This document shows, in pieces, positions 26,247 through 33,496 of a stretch of 64,000 bases of DNA (position 1 is the stretch's first letter; each line of letters starts with the position of its first letter). The notes under the pieces were generated by a model, which was given only the letters and a program-made list of their open reading frames with translations, did no database searches and was not told where the DNA came from. The position numbers and the translations under genes were made by a program. The DNA is from Escherichia coli. Its GTDB lineage: Bacteria > Pseudomonadota > Gammaproteobacteria > Enterobacterales > Enterobacteriaceae. The stretch is from NCBI RefSeq assembly GCF_965641715.1, contig NZ_OZ282453.1. One strand, written 5' to 3'.

Positions 26247-26861
26247 CTATCGAAACAGCGATTTAACCGCGACAGGAATTAACAGTTGTGATTGCCATTG
26301 CGCCAGCGTTAAGCGAGCCAGTTCACCCAGTGCACGGTAGAAAGGGTGTTCTGCTTTTTCGATAAAAACATCAAGAAAACGTGTTGACCACGGAAAAAGG
26401 TGCCATGCCAGCAATTCTTCGCATTCTGTCTGGCGACCATTCTCCGCCAACCACGCAGCCATCAACAGCAGTGAACCAAAATGATCTTCCGGTTCGTTTT
26501 GCTTCATTTCAAACTGAATGCCTTTCTCGCGCATCCACTGACGAAGTGCCAATGTTGAATCGCCAAACAGCACAGATTCGCGATCCAGCCAGACCGACCC
26601 CCACGGCGGAGACGGCAGTGCCCACGGGCCGACAAACAAACGCTGCCAGGCCTGGGCGTGAGTCTCTTCACACTGTGTCTGAAAAGCCGTCACCAGCGGC
26701 GCTAATGACGCTTCTGGTAGAGGCCACTGAGTTTCCCAGCCGTCACTGGTGAGTACCGCAACCAGAGGTGCGGCTTCAGCACTCTCTGGAGCGTAATAAA
26801 ACAGCGCGCCCAACACGCGCGCCGCGACAGAAAAATTATCTTGCTGTGAAAAATGGGTCAT
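26247..26861 (-). CDS. dmsD: Tat proofreading chaperone DmsD
   Basis: ORF trimmed to MTHFSQQDNFSVAARVLGALFYYAPE... (204 aa), matching recalled DmsD. Confidence 0.9.
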   Translation of the reverse strand: MTHFSQQDNFSVAARVLGALFYYAPESAEAAPLVAVLTSDGWETQWPLPEASLAPLVTAFQTQCEETHAQAWQRLFVGPWALPSPPWGSVWLDRESVLFGDSTLALRQWMREKGIQFEMKQNEPEDHFGSLLLMAAWLAENGRQTECEELLAWHLFPWSTRFLDVFIEKAEHPFYRALGELARLTLAQWQSQLLIPVAVKSLFR

Positions 26862-26903
26862 TCCTAACATCCTGAAATGTGCGGGTTGCCCCGCACTAAT
26901 TTG

Positions 26904-27758
26904 TTAACCTGCAATAGCCATTCCTACCGTCATGTGCAGGCCATAAAAGAGCACACGCCCGATCATCTCACCGCCAAGAATGAGGATTAACCCCAGAATA
27001 AGTCCGGCAACGTGAGGTTCACGGCGACGTATGAGCGGACAAAGCCAGCATCCTAGACCTGCGCATAACAATACCACACGCCAGACCTGTAAGGAGGCGT
27101 AATCTGGTACCAGTGCGCTGGCTTGTTGCACGGATGAGTGAATAGACGACAGAGACAAACCTTGCAGCACAATCACCCCGGCACAAGCGATCAGCGCCAG
27201 AACGCTAATGATGGCAAATGGTGTGGTATTAAATGTAACGCGGGCTGCCCGCAGAATTGCGGCAGCAAGTATTGGACCACTCAACAATACCGTCAGGAAG
27301 AAAGCCAGCGTAGTGTAACCGTTATGCCAGGTTGGCACAGTGTCGATTTGATACACGCAGGTCATCATCCAGACGAAAATGACGCCGAGCGCCATGCTGA
27401 CAAGTAACCAGAGTTTCCCCAACGCTTGCGGCATTTTACCGATGACCGCCACCAGCCACCATAGTCCGCCAACGGCAAAAAATATGGAACCGGCAGCAAT
27501 CTCGTTACTCAGACCAGAAGCTCCGATTCGATTCAGCGAGTTAAACGCCCGCAGTGGCGATCCCAGGTGCATGACAGAGGCAATAAACCCGATGCCCATC
27601 AACAGCCAGAGGAAAAACATGCCACGAACAATGTGCTGACGGTCTGCGTCATTTTTGGCGGCGAACCAGCCAATTCCGCTAACAATCAGCGCGCCTACTA
27701 CGCATTGACCCAATACGGTAAAGATAACCAGTGGCCACTCATGCCATCCATTTCCCAT
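26904..27758 (-). CDS. ynfH: DMSO-reductase-family membrane anchor subunit (DmsC paralog) YnfH
   Basis: Six-frame ORF read through from upstream; trimmed to MGNGWHEWPLVIFTVLGQ... (284 aa), starting 1 nt after the ynfG stop. Confidence 0.9.
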   Translation of the reverse strand: MGNGWHEWPLVIFTVLGQCVVGALIVSGIGWFAAKNDADRQHIVRGMFFLWLLMGIGFIASVMHLGSPLRAFNSLNRIGASGLSNEIAAGSIFFAVGGLWWLVAVIGKMPQALGKLWLLVSMALGVIFVWMMTCVYQIDTVPTWHNGYTTLAFFLTVLLSGPILAAAILRAARVTFNTTPFAIISVLALIACAGVIVLQGLSLSSIHSSVQQASALVPDYASLQVWRVVLLCAGLGCWLCPLIRRREPHVAGLILGLILILGGEMIGRVLFYGLHMTVGMAIAG

Positions 27759-27759
27759 T

Positions 27760-28377
27760 TTACACTTCCTCCGGATTAGCCAGATAACCAGTGGTATTGC
27801 CGGTCGGGCGGCTGTTGGCGTTAGGTTTGATAACGATATTGGGTTTTGTGAAATGCGCGCGCGGCAGTGGCGCGACGGCAGCAAGAGTGCCGTGCTTCTG
27901 GCGCAGCTCTTCAATTGGACCGAACTCAAGTGCACGCAGCGGGCAGGATTCGACACATATGGGTTGTTTCCCCTCGGCGACGCGCGAATAACAACCATCG
28001 CACTTCGTCATGTGCCCTTTTTCAGCATTGTACTGTGGCGCGCCGTACGGACAAGCCATGTGGCAGTAGCGGCAGCCGATACAAACATCTTCATCAACCA
28101 CCACAAAGCCATCTTCACGCTTATGCATTGCGCCGCTGGGGCAGACTTTTGTACATGCGGGGTCATCGCAATGGTTACAGGAGATGGAGAGATAATAAGC
28201 GAACACGTTCTGGTGCCAGACGCCATTATCTTCCTGCCAGTCGCCGCCAGCATATTCATAAATACGGCGGAAACTGACTTCCGGGCCAAGATCTTTAAAA
28301 TCTTTGCACGCCAGTTCGCAGGTTTTACAGCCAGTACAGCGGCTGGAATCGATAAAAAATCCATATTGTGTGGTCAT
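27760..28377 (-). CDS. ynfG: DMSO-reductase-family 4Fe-4S ferredoxin subunit (DmsB paralog) YnfG
   Basis: 205-aa ORF with four CxxCxxCxxxCP ferredoxin clusters. Confidence 0.93.
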   Translation of the reverse strand: MTTQYGFFIDSSRCTGCKTCELACKDFKDLGPEVSFRRIYEYAGGDWQEDNGVWHQNVFAYYLSISCNHCDDPACTKVCPSGAMHKREDGFVVVDEDVCIGCRYCHMACPYGAPQYNAEKGHMTKCDGCYSRVAEGKQPICVESCPLRALEFGPIEELRQKHGTLAAVAPLPRAHFTKPNIVIKPNANSRPTGNTTGYLANPEEV

Positions 28378-28387
28378 GGGCTACTCC

Positions 28388-30811
28388 TTAAACCTTTTCG
28401 ATCTGGACAAGATTGCTGTGCGACGGGTTTCCCTTTGCCAGCGGTGAAGGGCGGTGAGAGGTCAGAATATTGATACTGCCGCCGTGATCGACCCGGTCAC
28501 CAAACATATCCGCTTTAAGCCACGCACCTTGCCCGATGGCGGTAACGCCAGGCAGAATACGCGGAGTCACTTTTGCGGCAATCAGCATTTCTCCATTATT
28601 GTTAAATACCCGCACGGTATCGCCATGACGGATACCGCGAGCCTGAGCATCAATGGGGTTGATCCACACCTCTTGTGGGCAGGCCTGCTGTAACACATCA
28701 ATATTGCCGTAGCTGGAGTGGGTACGTGCTTTGTAGTGGAAGCCCGTTAACTGCAGTGGATAGGTTTTCCGCAGGGGATCGTCCCAGCCATCAAAACCTG
28801 GGGTATACGCAGGAAGGGGATGAATAATTTCATCTTTTTTCAATTCCCAGGTATCTGCAATCTTCGCCAGTCGTTCAGAATAAATTTCGATTTTCCCCGA
28901 AGGTGTTTTCAACGGGTTTGCCTGTGGATCTTCACGGAATGCGCGGAAAGCGACGTAGTGTTCTTCCGGGCATTTTTTCTTAAAGATCCCGGTCGTTTTC
29001 ATCTCCTCGTAGTCGGGCATCTCAGGGTTACGTTCCTTCGTTTTCGCATGGAGATATTTGATCCATTCATGCTGACTGCGACCTTCAGTAAAGGTTTGAT
29101 AAACGTCCGGTCCTAAGCGTTTGGCGACTTCACTCAGCATCCAGTAGATGGGTTTGCGTTCAAATTTTGCTGAGGTTGCGGGTTGGGCGAGGATCACATA
29201 GCCCATATTCCCTGCAGATTCATGAGAGATAAGGTCTTCTTGCTCTGTTGGCATCAGGTCGGGCAACAGGATATCGCAATACTTAGCCGAGGCCGTCATG
29301 AAGTGGTCAATGCCAACAATCATCTCGCACTTGCTGTCATCCTGAAGCACCTCATGGGTGTGATTGATGTCGCCATGTTGATTGATCAATGTGTTACTGG
29401 CGTAGCACCATAAAAACTTGATGGGGACATCCAGTTTTTCTTTTCCACGAACACCATCACGGGTCGCGGTCATTTCCGTACCATGGTCGATGGCATCTGT
29501 CCATGTAAAGACGGAAATCTGCGTTTTAACAGGATTCTCGAGCATCGGGAACCATTCTACCCCCAGATCCCAGCTACCTTCGCGTACGCCTGAGTTGCCG
29601 CCGTTTATGCCGACGTTACCGGTGAGAACGGAAAGCATGGCAATAGCGCGGGATGTTTGCTCGCCGTTGGAATGTCGTTGTGGCCCCCAACCCTGACAAA
29701 TATAAGCAGGTTTTGCTGAACCGATCTCTCGTGCCAACTGGATAATTTTTTCTGCCGGGATGCTGGTGATTTTTGCTGCCCATTCCGGCGTTTTAGCTAT
29801 GCCGTCAGGCCCTTCGCCCAGAATATAGGCTTTATAATGCGCGTTACGTGGTGCGTTGGCGGGCAGCGTTTTTTCATCGTAACCAACACAATATTTGTCG
29901 AGAAATGGCTGATCGACCATGTTTTCAGTAATCAGTACCCAGGCAATCGCACAGGCCAGTGCGCCATCGGTGCCAGGGCGAATGGGCAGCCATTCATCTT
30001 CACGCCCGGCAGCTGTGTCGTTATAACGTGGATCGATGACGATCATGCGTGCGTTTGAACGTTCGCGGGCTTGCTCGACGTAGTAAGTGACACCACCACC
30101 GCTCATCCGCGTTTCTGCCGGGTTATTTCCGAACATAACGACCAGTTTCGTATTGGCGATATCATCCGGGCTGTTGCCATCATTGGCACCGAACATATAA
30201 CTCATTGCGGCACTGATCTGTGCGGTACTGTAGCTGCCATAGCGACTGAGAAAACCACCGCAAGAGTTCATCAGACGGTACGGGACGTTTGAGTTGGTGA
30301 TGTTTCCGCCATCTACACCTGTTCCGTACAGGACATGTACAGCCTCATTGCCGTAATCTTTTAGGATCCGCCGAAGATTATCACTGATGGTATCCAGGGC
30401 TTCGTCCCAACTTATCCGTTCAAATTTACCTTCACCGCGCTTGCCGACGCGCTTCATGGGATATTTCAACCTATCAGGATGATTCATCCGTCGGCGGATA
30501 GAGCGCCCGCGTAAACACGCTCGAACCTGATGATTACCGTAGACGTCGTCACCTGTCGTATCAGACTCCACCCAGTACACGGTGTCATCTTTCACATGCA
30601 AACGTAACAGACAGCGGCTCCCGCAGTTAACGGTGCAGGAACTCCAGACCGCTTTCTCTTCTACCGGAGCCTCTGCCGCCCGGACCATTTGGGAAAATGG
30701 CAGAGTGAAAGCACTGCTTGCCAGCGCAAGACTGCCAAGTGCGGAGGTTTTCATCAGACTTCTACGGCTGATTTCAGCCTTCATGAGCGCCTCTGTGGTA
30801 TGGATTTTCAT
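28388..30811 (-). CDS. ynfF: Tat-exported molybdopterin oxidoreductase catalytic subunit (DmsA paralog) YnfF
   Basis: 807/808-aa ORF with twin-arginine signal (SRRSLMK) and molybdopterin oxidoreductase Cys cluster (CTVNCGSRC); tandem paralog of ynfE. Confidence 0.92.
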   Translation of the reverse strand: MKIHTTEALMKAEISRRSLMKTSALGSLALASSAFTLPFSQMVRAAEAPVEEKAVWSSCTVNCGSRCLLRLHVKDDTVYWVESDTTGDDVYGNHQVRACLRGRSIRRRMNHPDRLKYPMKRVGKRGEGKFERISWDEALDTISDNLRRILKDYGNEAVHVLYGTGVDGGNITNSNVPYRLMNSCGGFLSRYGSYSTAQISAAMSYMFGANDGNSPDDIANTKLVVMFGNNPAETRMSGGGVTYYVEQARERSNARMIVIDPRYNDTAAGREDEWLPIRPGTDGALACAIAWVLITENMVDQPFLDKYCVGYDEKTLPANAPRNAHYKAYILGEGPDGIAKTPEWAAKITSIPAEKIIQLAREIGSAKPAYICQGWGPQRHSNGEQTSRAIAMLSVLTGNVGINGGNSGVREGSWDLGVEWFPMLENPVKTQISVFTWTDAIDHGTEMTATRDGVRGKEKLDVPIKFLWCYASNTLINQHGDINHTHEVLQDDSKCEMIVGIDHFMTASAKYCDILLPDLMPTEQEDLISHESAGNMGYVILAQPATSAKFERKPIYWMLSEVAKRLGPDVYQTFTEGRSQHEWIKYLHAKTKERNPEMPDYEEMKTTGIFKKKCPEEHYVAFRAFREDPQANPLKTPSGKIEIYSERLAKIADTWELKKDEIIHPLPAYTPGFDGWDDPLRKTYPLQLTGFHYKARTHSSYGNIDVLQQACPQEVWINPIDAQARGIRHGDTVRVFNNNGEMLIAAKVTPRILPGVTAIGQGAWLKADMFGDRVDHGGSINILTSHRPSPLAKGNPSHSNLVQIEKV

Positions 30812-30871
30812 CATTACTCACTTATTGCTTTTCAAACAAAATGTCATGCCAGAATTTATGGTTGTAGTGGG

Positions 30872-33298
30872 TTATATTTTTTCGATCTCGACCAGATTCG
30901 TATGCTGCGGGTTTCCCTTCGCCAGTGGTGAAGGGCGCAGAGTGGTTAGCATATTCACACAGCCTCCATGGTCGATTTTATCGCCAGACATATTGGCCTC
31001 GTGCCAGGCTCCCTGGCCCATAGCGCTAACTCCAGGGAGAATACGTGGTGTCACTTTGGCTGGTAGCCGAACTTCGCCACGATGGTTAAACACCCGCACC
31101 ATATCGCCGTTGGCAATCCCACGTTTCTGCGCATCTATAGGGTTGATCCACACCTCCTGACGGCAGGCTGCTTTCAGGACATCAATATTGCCGTAGGTCG
31201 AGTGAGTACGGGATTTGTAATGGAAACCAAACAGTTGCAGTGGGAAGGTTCTACGTTCAGGTGAGTCCCAGCCTTCAAAGGTAGAGGCATAAACTGGCAG
31301 TGGGCTTATCACTTCATCTTTTTCCAGTTCCCAGGTACGGGCAATTTCCGCCAGCTTGCTGGAATAAATTTCAATCTTACCGGAAGGTGTTTTAAGTGGA
31401 TTTGCCTCGGGGTCGTCACGAAATGCTTTGTAGGCGACAAAATGACCATTGGGATCTTTACGCTTATAGATACCCATTTTTTTCAGTTCGTCGTAAGACG
31501 GTAACGCCGGATCTTTGGCAAGCATTTTGGCGTACAGATGTTGTAACCATTGTTCCTGCGTGCGACCTTCTGTGAACTTTTGATAGACGTCAGGTCCAAG
31601 ACGTTTCGCGACTTCACTCAGGATCCAGTAAATCGGTTTGCGTTCGAATTTTTCGCTGGTGACAGGCTGGAGGAAAATGAGATATCCCATGTTACCGGCG
31701 TAGTCGTTAGGAATAATATCTTCCTGCTCAACGGTCATCAGGTCTGGCAGCAGAATGTCGGCATATTTTGCCGATGAGGTCATAAAGTTTTCGATGACCA
31801 CAATCATTTCGCATTTCGATTCGTCCTGCAGAATTTCATGCGTTTTGTTGATGTCAGAATGCTGATTAACCAGGGTATTTCCCGCGTAGTTCCAGATGAA
31901 CTTAATGGGCACATCCAGTTTATCTTTGCCGCGGACGCCGTCGCGGATTGCCGTCATTTGTGGGCCATGATCGATAGCATCTGTCCAGCTGAAGCAGGAA
32001 ATTGACGTTTTGACCGGATTATCCAGCACCGGCAGGCGTTCTATGGTAATGGTATAGGTCGATTCACGCGCGCCACTATTTCCGCCGCTGATGCCGACAT
32101 TGCCCGTCAGAATAGGCAACATAGCAATAGCGCGTGCGGTCAGCTCACCGTTTGCCTGGCGTTGCGGCCCCCAGCCCTGGCAGATATAAGCGGGTTTTGC
32201 TGTGCCAATTTCACGCGCCAGTTTGATGATACGGTCCTCCGGGATACCGGTAATTTGCGAAGCCCACTGCGGCGTTTTCGCTGTTTTATCGTCACCTTCA
32301 CCAAGAATATAGGCTTTATAGTGACCATTTTTGGGGGCATCTGCGGGTAAGGTTTTTTCGTCATAGCCGACGCAGTATTTATCGAGAAAAGGTTGATCAA
32401 CGAGATTTTCGTTAATCAATACCCAGGCAATACCCGCAACCAGCGCGGCATCGGTGCCCGGGCGAATAGGAAGCCATTCGTCTTCACGACCGGCAGCCGT
32501 ATCGGTATATCGCGGATCGATAACAATCATTTTTGCGTTCGATTTTTCGCGCGCTTTTTCAAGAAGATAAGTGATGCCACCGCCGCTCATGCGGGTTTCT
32601 GCTGGGTTGTTACCAAACATCACGACCAGCTTGCTGTTTTCAATATCCGTGGTGCTGTTGCCATCATTACTGCCGTAGGTGTAGGGCATGGCACAGGAAA
32701 TTTGCGCAGTGCTGTAGGAGCCATACTGGTTGAGTGAACCGCCGTAGCAGTTCATCAGGCGTTTGACCGCCGAGGCTGATGGCGAAGAGCGGGTCATATT
32801 GCCGCCAACGATCCCCGAAGAGTACTGAATATATACAGCCTCATTGCCATATTGTTCGACGGTTTTTTTCAGGCTACTGGCGATAGTATCCAGGGCTTCA
32901 TCCCAGCTAATCCGTTCGAATTTGCCTTCACCGCGTTTACCCACGCGTTTCATTGGGTAATTCAAGCGATCGGGATGATTAATACGCCGGCGGATGGAGC
33001 GACCGCGCAAACAGGCGCGTACTTGATGATTGCCATACTCATCGCTGCCGGTGTTGTCAGTTTCCACCCAGGTCACTTCATTATCTTTAACATGTAGACG
33101 AAGTGCACAGCGGCTACCACAGTTGACGGAACAGGCACCCCAGACCACTTTTTCGCGGGCCTGTTGTACCGCTGCTGCTGCACTGCGCAGGGTAAACGGC
33201 AAAGAAAAACCGCCTGCAGCCAGCGCCAGAGAACCTATCGCGGTAGATTTAACGAGTGTTCTGCGGCTGATGCCCACCATTCGGTCATTTTTGGACAT
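30872..33298 (-). CDS. ynfE: Tat-exported selenate/DMSO-reductase-family catalytic subunit (DmsA paralog) YnfE
   Basis: 808-aa ORF with twin-arginine signal (SRRTLVK); highly similar throughout to ynfF. Confidence 0.92.
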   Translation of the reverse strand: MSKNDRMVGISRRTLVKSTAIGSLALAAGGFSLPFTLRSAAAAVQQAREKVVWGACSVNCGSRCALRLHVKDNEVTWVETDNTGSDEYGNHQVRACLRGRSIRRRINHPDRLNYPMKRVGKRGEGKFERISWDEALDTIASSLKKTVEQYGNEAVYIQYSSGIVGGNMTRSSPSASAVKRLMNCYGGSLNQYGSYSTAQISCAMPYTYGSNDGNSTTDIENSKLVVMFGNNPAETRMSGGGITYLLEKAREKSNAKMIVIDPRYTDTAAGREDEWLPIRPGTDAALVAGIAWVLINENLVDQPFLDKYCVGYDEKTLPADAPKNGHYKAYILGEGDDKTAKTPQWASQITGIPEDRIIKLAREIGTAKPAYICQGWGPQRQANGELTARAIAMLPILTGNVGISGGNSGARESTYTITIERLPVLDNPVKTSISCFSWTDAIDHGPQMTAIRDGVRGKDKLDVPIKFIWNYAGNTLVNQHSDINKTHEILQDESKCEMIVVIENFMTSSAKYADILLPDLMTVEQEDIIPNDYAGNMGYLIFLQPVTSEKFERKPIYWILSEVAKRLGPDVYQKFTEGRTQEQWLQHLYAKMLAKDPALPSYDELKKMGIYKRKDPNGHFVAYKAFRDDPEANPLKTPSGKIEIYSSKLAEIARTWELEKDEVISPLPVYASTFEGWDSPERRTFPLQLFGFHYKSRTHSTYGNIDVLKAACRQEVWINPIDAQKRGIANGDMVRVFNHRGEVRLPAKVTPRILPGVSAMGQGAWHEANMSGDKIDHGGCVNMLTTLRPSPLAKGNPQHTNLVEIEKI

Positions 33299-33496
33299 AA
33301 CTCACTCCCTGTTCTTTATCGTTATATAAATGTTTATATATTGAATATTTAGCGCGCTAACAATAGAGGGGGTCTACCCATTTTGGGTTAAGAATTATTA
33401 ATCCACATCAATAGAAGGGTATGAGTAATATGGTGGGATTATGTTGTATGTTCAAATCGCCGGATGTGTCATATCCGGCGTTCAGTCGATAATGTG

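Follow-up and report, generated by a model that had tools for sequence, protein, structure and literature searches.

Tandem paralogs ynfE and ynfF of Escherichia coli: diverged molybdoenzyme genes that evolve independently, with rare in-register hybrids in other genomes

The window, a 64,000-nt stretch of Escherichia coli DNA (RefSeq assembly GCF_965641715.1, contig NZ_OZ282453.1), carries on its minus strand two open reading frames of 808 codons each, at exactly 28388..30814 and 30872..33298. They are the first two genes of an operon with the following features:

30872..33298, minus strand: ynfE, 808 aa, molybdopterin catalytic subunit with predicted Tat export; heads the ynfEFGH-dmsD operon
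30815..30871, minus strand: ynfE-ynfF intergenic spacer, 57 nt (60 nt with the RefSeq ynfF ATG)
28388..30814, minus strand: ynfF, paralogous catalytic subunit, 808-aa maximal open reading frame
27760..28377, minus strand: ynfG, four-cluster iron-sulfur electron-transfer subunit (DmsB paralog); TIGR02951 (DMSO_dmsB) 264.8 bits, cutoff 214.1
26904..27758, minus strand: ynfH, membrane anchor and quinol-oxidising subunit (DmsC paralog); coordinates from the colinear RefSeq locus
26247..26861, minus strand: dmsD, Tat proofreading chaperone; RefSeq length 615 nt

The starts of ynfE and ynfF lie 2,484 nt apart, with a gap of 57 nt between the genes. RefSeq places the start of ynfF at the second ATG, one codon downstream of the maximal start, which yields a protein of 807 aa encoded at 28388..30811. 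The first-pass annotation had described two adjacent 808-codon genes with near-parallel proteins, twin-arginine signals and the same order of motifs, and had named them ynfE and ynfF, and all of this was borne out. BLASTP aligned the two products over 801 aa with 70.9% identity and 85.5% positives. The product of 30872..33298 scored 1796.8 bits with the NCBIfam model NF041885 (selenate_YnfE; cutoff 1675) and the product of 28388..30814 scored 1774.7 bits with NF041884 (selenate_YnfF; cutoff 1650), and each stayed below the cutoff of the other model (1482.6 bits for YnfF with NF041885, 1477.5 bits for YnfE with NF041884). The names therefore stand, with no evidence against them, but the order is that of the minus strand, with ynfE at the higher coordinates coming first. 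Both proteins also passed the cutoff of 778 bits for the dmsA_ynfE subfamily TIGR02166 (YnfE 1399, YnfF 1286 bits), and they share the Pfam order PF04879 (Molybdop_Fe4S4), PF00384 (Molybdopterin) and PF01568 (Molydop_binding) as well as a C-x3-C-x3-C cysteine group, which begins at aa 56 in YnfE and at aa 60 in YnfF; this domain order is that of type II Mo-bisMGD enzymes. Both are predicted Tat substrates: near the N-terminus each has a motif of the form S/T-R-R-x-F/L-L/V/M-K with a hydrophobic stretch after it, namely SRRTLVK at aa 11 in YnfE and SRRSLMK at aa 16 in YnfF.

Co-oriented genes for A-A'-B-C subunits and a chaperone mark the locus as an operon, in which YnfG and DmsD were recognised by models and ynfH by RefSeq colinearity. 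Syntenic RefSeq loci are likewise annotated with ynfG, and Pfam PF04976 (DmsC) matches ynfH in related loci. A 364-aa open reading frame at 26904..27998, for which NCBIfam gave no match, is an over-extension of ynfH into ynfG. The 207-aa open reading frame at 26247..26870 matched NF008632 for dmsD over aa 4-207 with 346.8 bits (cutoff 162). DmsD binds the signal peptides of YnfE and YnfF, and also that of DmsA (PMC5203670). Two papers, PMC5203670 and PMC12096835, present ynfEFGH as a selenate/tellurate reductase on the strength of published genetics (Guymer 2009, Fujita 2021, Lubitz & Weiner 2003). By analogy with this literature YnfE and YnfF of the window are probably its catalytic subunits, each with a molybdopterin cofactor and a [4Fe-4S] cluster, which would act together with YnfG and YnfH and be matured by DmsD.

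The setting is that of an ordinary E. coli chromosome, with E. coli core genes on both flanks, and the pair consists of already known, textbook-annotated paralogs. The locus is 99.4% identical to the RefSeq-annotated ynfE-ynfF of E. coli, the window allele being nearest to those of bovine and primate isolates (99.2-99.4%), and neither gene is disrupted or chimeric. In a set of 5,426 complete genomes of E. coli, 5,126 (about 95%) contain 80% or more of the stretch that spans the two genes.

The first-pass annotation had described the two genes as a direct repeat of about 2.4 kb. The tandem layout is as described, but the similarity of the DNA was overstated. BLASTN aligned 2,290 nt of ynfE and ynfF with 71.0% identity (E = 0), and a codon-based alignment gave 69.7%, with identities of 79, 84 and 47% at codon positions 1, 2 and 3. 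The estimated dN was 0.21 and dS 1.5-2.3, so that synonymous sites are saturated. The longest identical run shared by the two genes measures 18 nt in the window (15-20 nt in nine other strains), and the window pair has no k-mer in common at k of 19 or above. YnfE and YnfF of Salmonella are likewise 71% identical (PMC5203670), which argues that the duplication is old and that the copies have not been homogenised. We therefore regard the two genes as tandem paralogs that arose long ago when a dmsA-like gene was duplicated, a view that forms part of the explanation in which we place high confidence below.

At this divergence, with runs of at most 18 nt and no shared 19-mer, reads and assembly k-mers are unique to one gene or the other. 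The expected trouble for read mapping and assembly does not arise, and at 70% identity the pair is no mapping, assembly or gene-conversion hazard. The same figures bear on recombination. We counted a pair as an ordinary RecA substrate only if its longest unbroken identical run reached the length of the minimal efficient processing segment and its overall identity was high. In E. coli this segment is reportedly about 23-27 bp, a figure attributed to work of Shen and Huang in 1986. With identical runs that reach only 18 nt here and 15-20 nt in the nine other strains, and an overall identity of 69-71%, the pair is too diverged to act as such a substrate. The first-pass annotation had itself named identity too low for homologous recombination as the observation that would count against its reading, and this is essentially the situation at the locus.

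Gene conversion, the second process that had been proposed, left no trace in the strains compared. Among 10 diverse E. coli genomes, identity within each paralog was 96.9-99.8%, whereas ynfE and ynfF were 68-70% identical to one another in every strain. No conversion tracts were detected in these 10 genomes, where the longest run matching the other paralog covered at most 3 of 732 diagnostic sites; a scan of this size would overlook conversion that is very rare or confined to very short tracts. In none of the 10 strains were the paralogs closer to each other than to their orthologs, nor were tracts swapped between them. ynfE and ynfF thus evolve independently, without concerted evolution.

The suggestion to look for chimeric alleles in other E. 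coli genomes proved fruitful, at low frequency. Using a query of the joined flanks, we found 10 of the 5,426 complete genomes in which the flanks lie exactly 2,427 nt apart and enclose a single in-frame, in-register gene with the 5' part of ynfE and the 3' part of ynfF. These represent two events. One junction lies in an 8-nt identical tract, AACGGCGA, at ynfE nt 1146, where all 782 informative sites fit a single switch from ynfE to ynfF, and the other in a 14-nt identical tract, AACCCGGCAGAAAC, at ynfE nt 690, where the same is true of all 764 informative sites. These breakpoints were mapped with near-parental alleles (strains CAVP773 and CX21), which were chosen by the ynfE part and the flank, as ranking over the whole locus was confounded by the extension of megablast alignments into the paralogous part. 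With the alleles of the window as parents, mapping left scattered misfits and a 5-nt tract; both disappeared with the near-parental alleles, so that the misfits reflect ordinary polymorphism and not mosaicism. Draft genomes contributed two further independent hybrids, with junctions in a tract of 9 nt at ynfE nt 1020 and in a tract of about 6 nt at ynfE nt 1287, the latter length being uncertain because its parental alleles are only approximated, with misfits at 21 of 766 sites.

One of the hybrids, here called type 1, recurs. Eight complete genomes, which trace to NIH, to an Alberta meat plant and to Virginia as three separate sources, share an identical stretch of 7.8 kb at its locus, the exact protein was found on 68 contigs, and it is fixed in a built-environment lineage, the 'naturalized' wastewater/meat-plant ST399. 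Because it scores below the cutoffs of both the YnfE and the YnfF model it is named generically, which annotators should bear in mind. Tandem paralogs are a classic site of assembly collapse, and the hybrids might accordingly be collapsed repeats rather than real alleles. We consider this extremely improbable: assemblers have no basis for collapse between copies that lack common k-mers from 19 nt upwards, the type-1 locus and protein recur as just described, both draft hybrids are present in the NCBI as well as in the independent Logan assembly of their samples, and the junctions are clean, in frame and consist of a single switch.

The rarity of the hybrids bears on the reading closest to that of the first-pass annotation, in which the two genes recombine actively, by frequent crossing-over or conversion, and are similar enough to disturb mapping and assembly. 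The paralogs are indeed in tandem, in the same orientation and of equal length, and in-register hybrids do exist in other genomes. This reading is nevertheless very unlikely in view of the 70% identity and the short runs, the absence of conversion tracts in the 10 genomes, the equal divergence of the Salmonella pair, and the restriction of hybrids to two events among the complete genomes. The reciprocal product, a triplication with an F/E hybrid between ynfE and ynfF, would contain a second copy of the junction between the genes. A query composed of the ynfE 3' end, the spacer and the ynfF 5' end matched 5,305 places in 5,293 records, with at most two per genome, so that no more than 12 candidate genomes could hold a second copy of this junction. 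Even this is an upper bound, as IS insertions explain at least some of the cases; an insertion between ynfE and ynfF, as in CAVP773, mimics the signal of a double junction. Of the unequal recombination that had been proposed, what stands is the rare in-register hybrid in other genomes; ordinary homologous recombination does not, nor does any such event in this window.

Unequal recombination between ynfE and ynfF takes place on rare occasions, deleting 2,484 nt and leaving one in-frame hybrid whose junction lies in an identical tract of 6-14 nt. It might proceed through short homology (RecA-independent, of the replication-slippage or template-switch type) or through homeologous recombination, and would be guided by the in-register similarity of 70%. 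From the four events we infer that hybrids arise by one of these routes and not by classical RecA crossing-over. A narrower proposal is that they stem from RecA-dependent homeologous recombination, for instance in transient mismatch-repair-deficient mutators, rather than from RecA-independent slippage or template switching. In four further deletion alleles the register is lost and the microhomology amounts to 0-5 nt; three of these fuse ynfE with ynfF, and the fourth fuses ynfE with ynfG. The four hybrids, unlike the three deletions that fuse ynfE with ynfF, keep the exact register, which suggests pairing over extended similarity, and the junctions fall in locally better-matched stretches, with 80-82% identity within 25 nt on either side. 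The tracts of 6-14 nt are, however, shorter than the processing segment mentioned above, and for tandem repeats lying close together Lovett et al. reportedly documented in 2002 that short homologies can recombine without RecA. We regard the RecA-dependent variant as rather unlikely.

All four junctions lie within ynfE nt 690-1287, in the central third of the gene, and this clustering may stem from selection for hybrids that function and not from the mechanism. Taken further, the hybrids, which stem from at least four independent events, could be gene fusions that recur, function and are possibly under selection, and not just rare accidents, which we find unlikely. If true, they would amount to a set of natural domain swaps bearing on substrate specificity in DmsA-family molybdoenzymes and to a field example of productive recombination at only 70% identity. 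The explanation that we favor with high confidence is that of ancient paralogs that evolve independently and give rare in-register hybrids at short identical tracts. For the ynfE/ynfF pair its practical message is negative and matters little for this window, and the junctions of 6-14 nt may be of use in studies of recombination between diverged repeats.

The closest known counterpart is the pair of E. coli K-12, ynfE (b1587) and ynfF (b1588), where gene order, lengths and family-model matches are the same as in the window, as are the flanks, with ynfD upstream and ynfG, ynfH, dmsD and clcB downstream. The central 1,257 nt of the window across the ynfE-ynfF junction are 98.6% identical to K-12-type genomes, and the differences are only allelic; within either paralog, E. 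coli strains differ by at most about 3%. The selenate reductase operon ynfEFGH-dmsD of Salmonella enterica (STM1499/STM1498) is the same operon as that of the window, and its DmsD likewise binds both signal peptides; there selenate reduction is ascribed mainly to YnfE, with only a small share for YnfF (PMC5203670). DmsA of DmsABC shares with YnfE and YnfF the subfamily TIGR02166, the domains, Tat export and the chaperone, but both proteins stay below the cutoff of 1600 bits of the DmsA-specific model (YnfE 1345, YnfF 1321 bits), and dmsA, unlike ynfE and ynfF, sits elsewhere in the chromosome. As for the hybrids, they resemble the RecA-independent tandem-repeat deletions reportedly studied by Lovett and co-workers in that a single period, here 2,484 nt, is deleted between tandem direct copies and the junctions lie in short identical tracts, whereas ynfE and ynfF by far exceed, in both length and divergence, the repeats usually employed in such experiments.

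The window has two 808-codon open reading frames on the minus strand; as the operon lies on that strand, the upstream frame is ynfE and the other ynfF:

30872..33298, minus strand, ynfE: 1796.8 bits with the NCBIfam YnfE model (cutoff 1675), YnfF model failed
28388..30814, minus strand, ynfF: 1774.7 bits with the NCBIfam YnfF model (cutoff 1650), YnfE model failed

Both products scored far over the cutoff of the dmsA_ynfE subfamily and under the DmsA-specific one, and downstream of ynfF NCBIfam recognised YnfG (TIGR02951) and DmsD (NF008632). YnfE and YnfF have three Pfam domains in identical order, a C-x3-C-x3-C cysteine group, and the twin-arginine motifs SRRTLVK and SRRSLMK, respectively. 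The 4,911-nt ynfEF stretch matched annotated ynfE-ynfF of E. coli chromosomes in RefSeq at up to 99.4% identity, and at least 80% of it was present in 5,126 of 5,426 complete genomes. The best-match locus is colinear with the window (ynfM-ynfL-mlc-bioD-clcB-dmsD-ynfH-ynfG-ynfF-ynfE-ynfD-ynfC-speG-ynfB-ynfA-rspAB), and K-12 MG1655 has the same order. The positions, gene names, twin-arginine signals and common motif order of the first-pass annotation were all borne out by these data, and the pair is an already known, ordinary feature in the window. Its length of 808 codons for each gene holds for the maximal ORFs but not for ynfF at the RefSeq and K-12 start: the maximal ORF opens with MMK at 30814, and these annotations use the second ATG (807 aa; window 30811-30814). 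A 364-aa ORF at 26904-27998 on the minus strand has no NCBIfam match and consists of ynfH (284 aa, 26904..27758) plus an upstream extension that reads through ynfG in a different frame. Core E. coli chromosome (fumA/C, pntAB, ydgA and others) makes up the left 25 kb. The right 25 kb (about 38500-63500), directly past rspB, are a lambdoid prophage with site-specific integrase, exonuclease, terminase large subunit and portal genes, at least 80% of which is common to only 97 of the 5,426 genomes; strain XJ34 has an integrase at the corresponding position.

Homology between the copies does extend over the proposed direct repeat of some 2.4 kb, but their DNA is not nearly identical. The two genes are 71.0% identical by BLASTN (2,290 nt) and 69.7% in a codon alignment, and their proteins 70.9% by BLASTP (801 aa). 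Identity at codon positions 1, 2 and 3 is 79%, 84% and 47%, and four-fold degenerate sites are 41% identical, with 27% expected from composition; dN is 0.21 and dS, at 1.5-2.3, is saturated. Windows of 100 nt range from 48 to 83% identity, the longest identical run is 18 nt, and there are no k-mers in common at k ≥ 19. With such divergence, a read of ordinary length or an assembly k-mer belongs to one copy only, and the anticipated trouble in mapping and assembly is not supported.

Chimeric alleles, which the first-pass annotation proposed to look for, do occur in other E. coli, in ten of the 5,426 complete genomes and in two draft genomes. We joined 2,200 nt from each flank of ynfEF into one query, which gives a single joined match only when at least 2.2 kb are absent between the flanks. 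Such a match was obtained in 15 genomes, ten of which had a flank spacing of exactly 2,427 nt, the length of one gene. These ten encode two distinct 808-aa proteins: type 1 (WP_104457354.1; ECONIH4, six '0H' strains and CAVP776) and type 2 (WP_256683566.1; JCC-EE 7 and FELIX_MS533), found by exact-sequence look-up on 68 and two contigs, respectively. Among 40 cluster members listed there were two further 808-aa hybrids with different breakpoints, each from a draft genome in which it is the sole gene from ynfD to ynfG, and each recovered again in an independent assembly of its sample. Near-parental alleles served to map the junctions: for type 1 those of CAVP773, which matches the hybrid locus at 100% over the ynfE part and its flank, and for type 2 those of K-12. 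All informative sites (782/782 in type 1, 764/764 in type 2) fit one switch from ynfE to ynfF, and both types are in register and in frame. The junctions are as follows:

Type 1: within the 8-nt tract AACGGCGA, after ynfE nt 1146 (about aa 382), window position about 32153
Type 2: within the 14-nt tract AACCCGGCAGAAAC, after ynfE nt 690 (about aa 230), window position about 32609
Third hybrid: 9-nt tract AAAACGCCG, after ynfE nt 1020, window position about 32279
Fourth hybrid: tract of about 6 nt, after ynfE nt 1287 (parents approximate), window position about 32012

There are thus four independent in-register events. The type-1 protein falls just under both specific NCBIfam cutoffs (YnfF model 1642.9 versus 1650, YnfE model 1615.7 versus 1675) and is therefore named only 'DmsA/YnfE/YnfF family' (loci L002, L005 and L006, 2701-5127). 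Type 2 passes the YnfF cutoff; the NCBI pipeline names it YnfF, yet its residues 1-230, including the Tat signal peptide, are those of YnfE. PMC11169474 places ECONIH4 and the 0H strains in ST399, which it describes as a 'naturalized' lineage of wastewater and meat plants, and mentions neither ynf genes nor selenate. The hybrids are intact ORFs, and one of them persists in a lineage with isolates from two continents. These alleles are a feature of other genomes and not of the window, a minor oddity that may not have been reported before.

Of the seven ynfE-to-ynfF deletion alleles found in this analysis, four are in exact register, and with about 2,400 possible offsets this cannot be chance. 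Were an open frame the only thing under selection, any offset divisible by three would do, so alignment of the two copies along their extended 70% similarity must have directed the in-register events. The junction tracts are on the longer side of those available (in K-12, 8% of identical positions lie in runs of at least 14 nt and about a third in runs of at least 8 nt). The main alternative, homeologous recombination by RecA in cells deficient in mismatch repair, is weakened by tract length: efficient RecA-dependent exchange is usually reported to need 23-27 bp (Shen & Huang 1986), and the tracts of 14, 9, 8 and about 6 nt are all well under this figure. The route that we favour is thus slippage or template switching independent of RecA, which is reported to act at tandem copies (Bzymek & Lovett 2001; Lovett et al. 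2002) and would yield such hybrids from homeologous ones. No reciprocal triplication was found: 12 genomes at most had a second copy of the junction of ynfE end, spacer and ynfF start, and IS insertions mimic this signal. The suggested unequal recombination thus survives in a weak, rare and non-classical form in other genomes, but not in the window.

Four other deletion alleles are out of register, with junction microhomology of 0-5 nt (ynfE:1070 to ynfG:15, ynfE:1221 to ynfF:6, ynfE:1497 to ynfF:185 and ynfE:834 to ynfF:282), and so the locus also suffers ordinary illegitimate deletions. A large lineage, including Ecol_276 (NZ_CP018953.1, L020 1628-3197) and AZ 191 (NZ_CP184114.1, L011), has, beside an intact ynfE, a ynfF that has decayed to a pseudogene and lacks two internal segments (ynfF nt 716 to 1298 and 2071 to 2346); AZ 191 has the ynfE:834 to ynfF:282 deletion in addition. 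This lineage made up eight of 60 evenly spaced matches to the ynfE-ynfF junction, all at 96.8% identity and with ynfF annotated just 'molybdopterin-dependent oxidoreductase'. About 100 complete genomes are without ynfE-ynfF-ynfG and most of ynfH (equivalent to window about 26990..33467); the missing segment begins 169 nt before the start codon of ynfE and ends at ynfH nt 669, with a 3-nt overlap. As the junction is identical in A0 34/86 (L014) and Z1323CEC0015 (L015) despite differing DmsD and YnfD proteins, it suggests either that one old deletion has spread by recombination or that the event has recurred. Both genes are also frequent IS targets: in CAVP773 (L008 4041-5203) an IS3 between them rewrites the YnfE C-terminus, CX21 (ST635; L009 1-5151 and 11936-13755) has IS66 and IS30 in ynfF alongside an inversion, and other lineages have IS1203, ISEc52, IS1 or IS110.

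The gene conversion suggested by the first-pass annotation left no sign at 732 consensus-differing sites in ten diverse E. coli (the window, XJ34, K-12, CAVP773, O157:H7 PA20, LI60C3, SFAD3, 2016C-3878, Ecol_276 and A39). Identity within each paralog was 96.9-99.8%, identity between them 68-70% in all ten strains, and no allele had the state of the other paralog at more than three consecutive sites, which fits scattered polymorphism. The function of the window pair is predicted from the literature on ynfEFGH-dmsD, which encodes selenate reductase and whose DmsD binds the signal peptides of DmsA, YnfE and YnfF (PMC5203670); E. coli YnfE and YnfF are described as paralogs of DmsA that belong to the selenate/tellurate reductase YnfEFGH (PMC12096835, citing Lubitz & Weiner 2003; Fujita et al. 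2021). In Salmonella YnfE is the main catalytic subunit for selenate, with a small contribution of YnfF, and in Salmonella enterica the two are 71% identical (PMC5203670), equal to the figure for the window pair; together with the saturated dS, this means that the duplication is older than the Escherichia-Salmonella split and that no homogenisation of the copies has followed.
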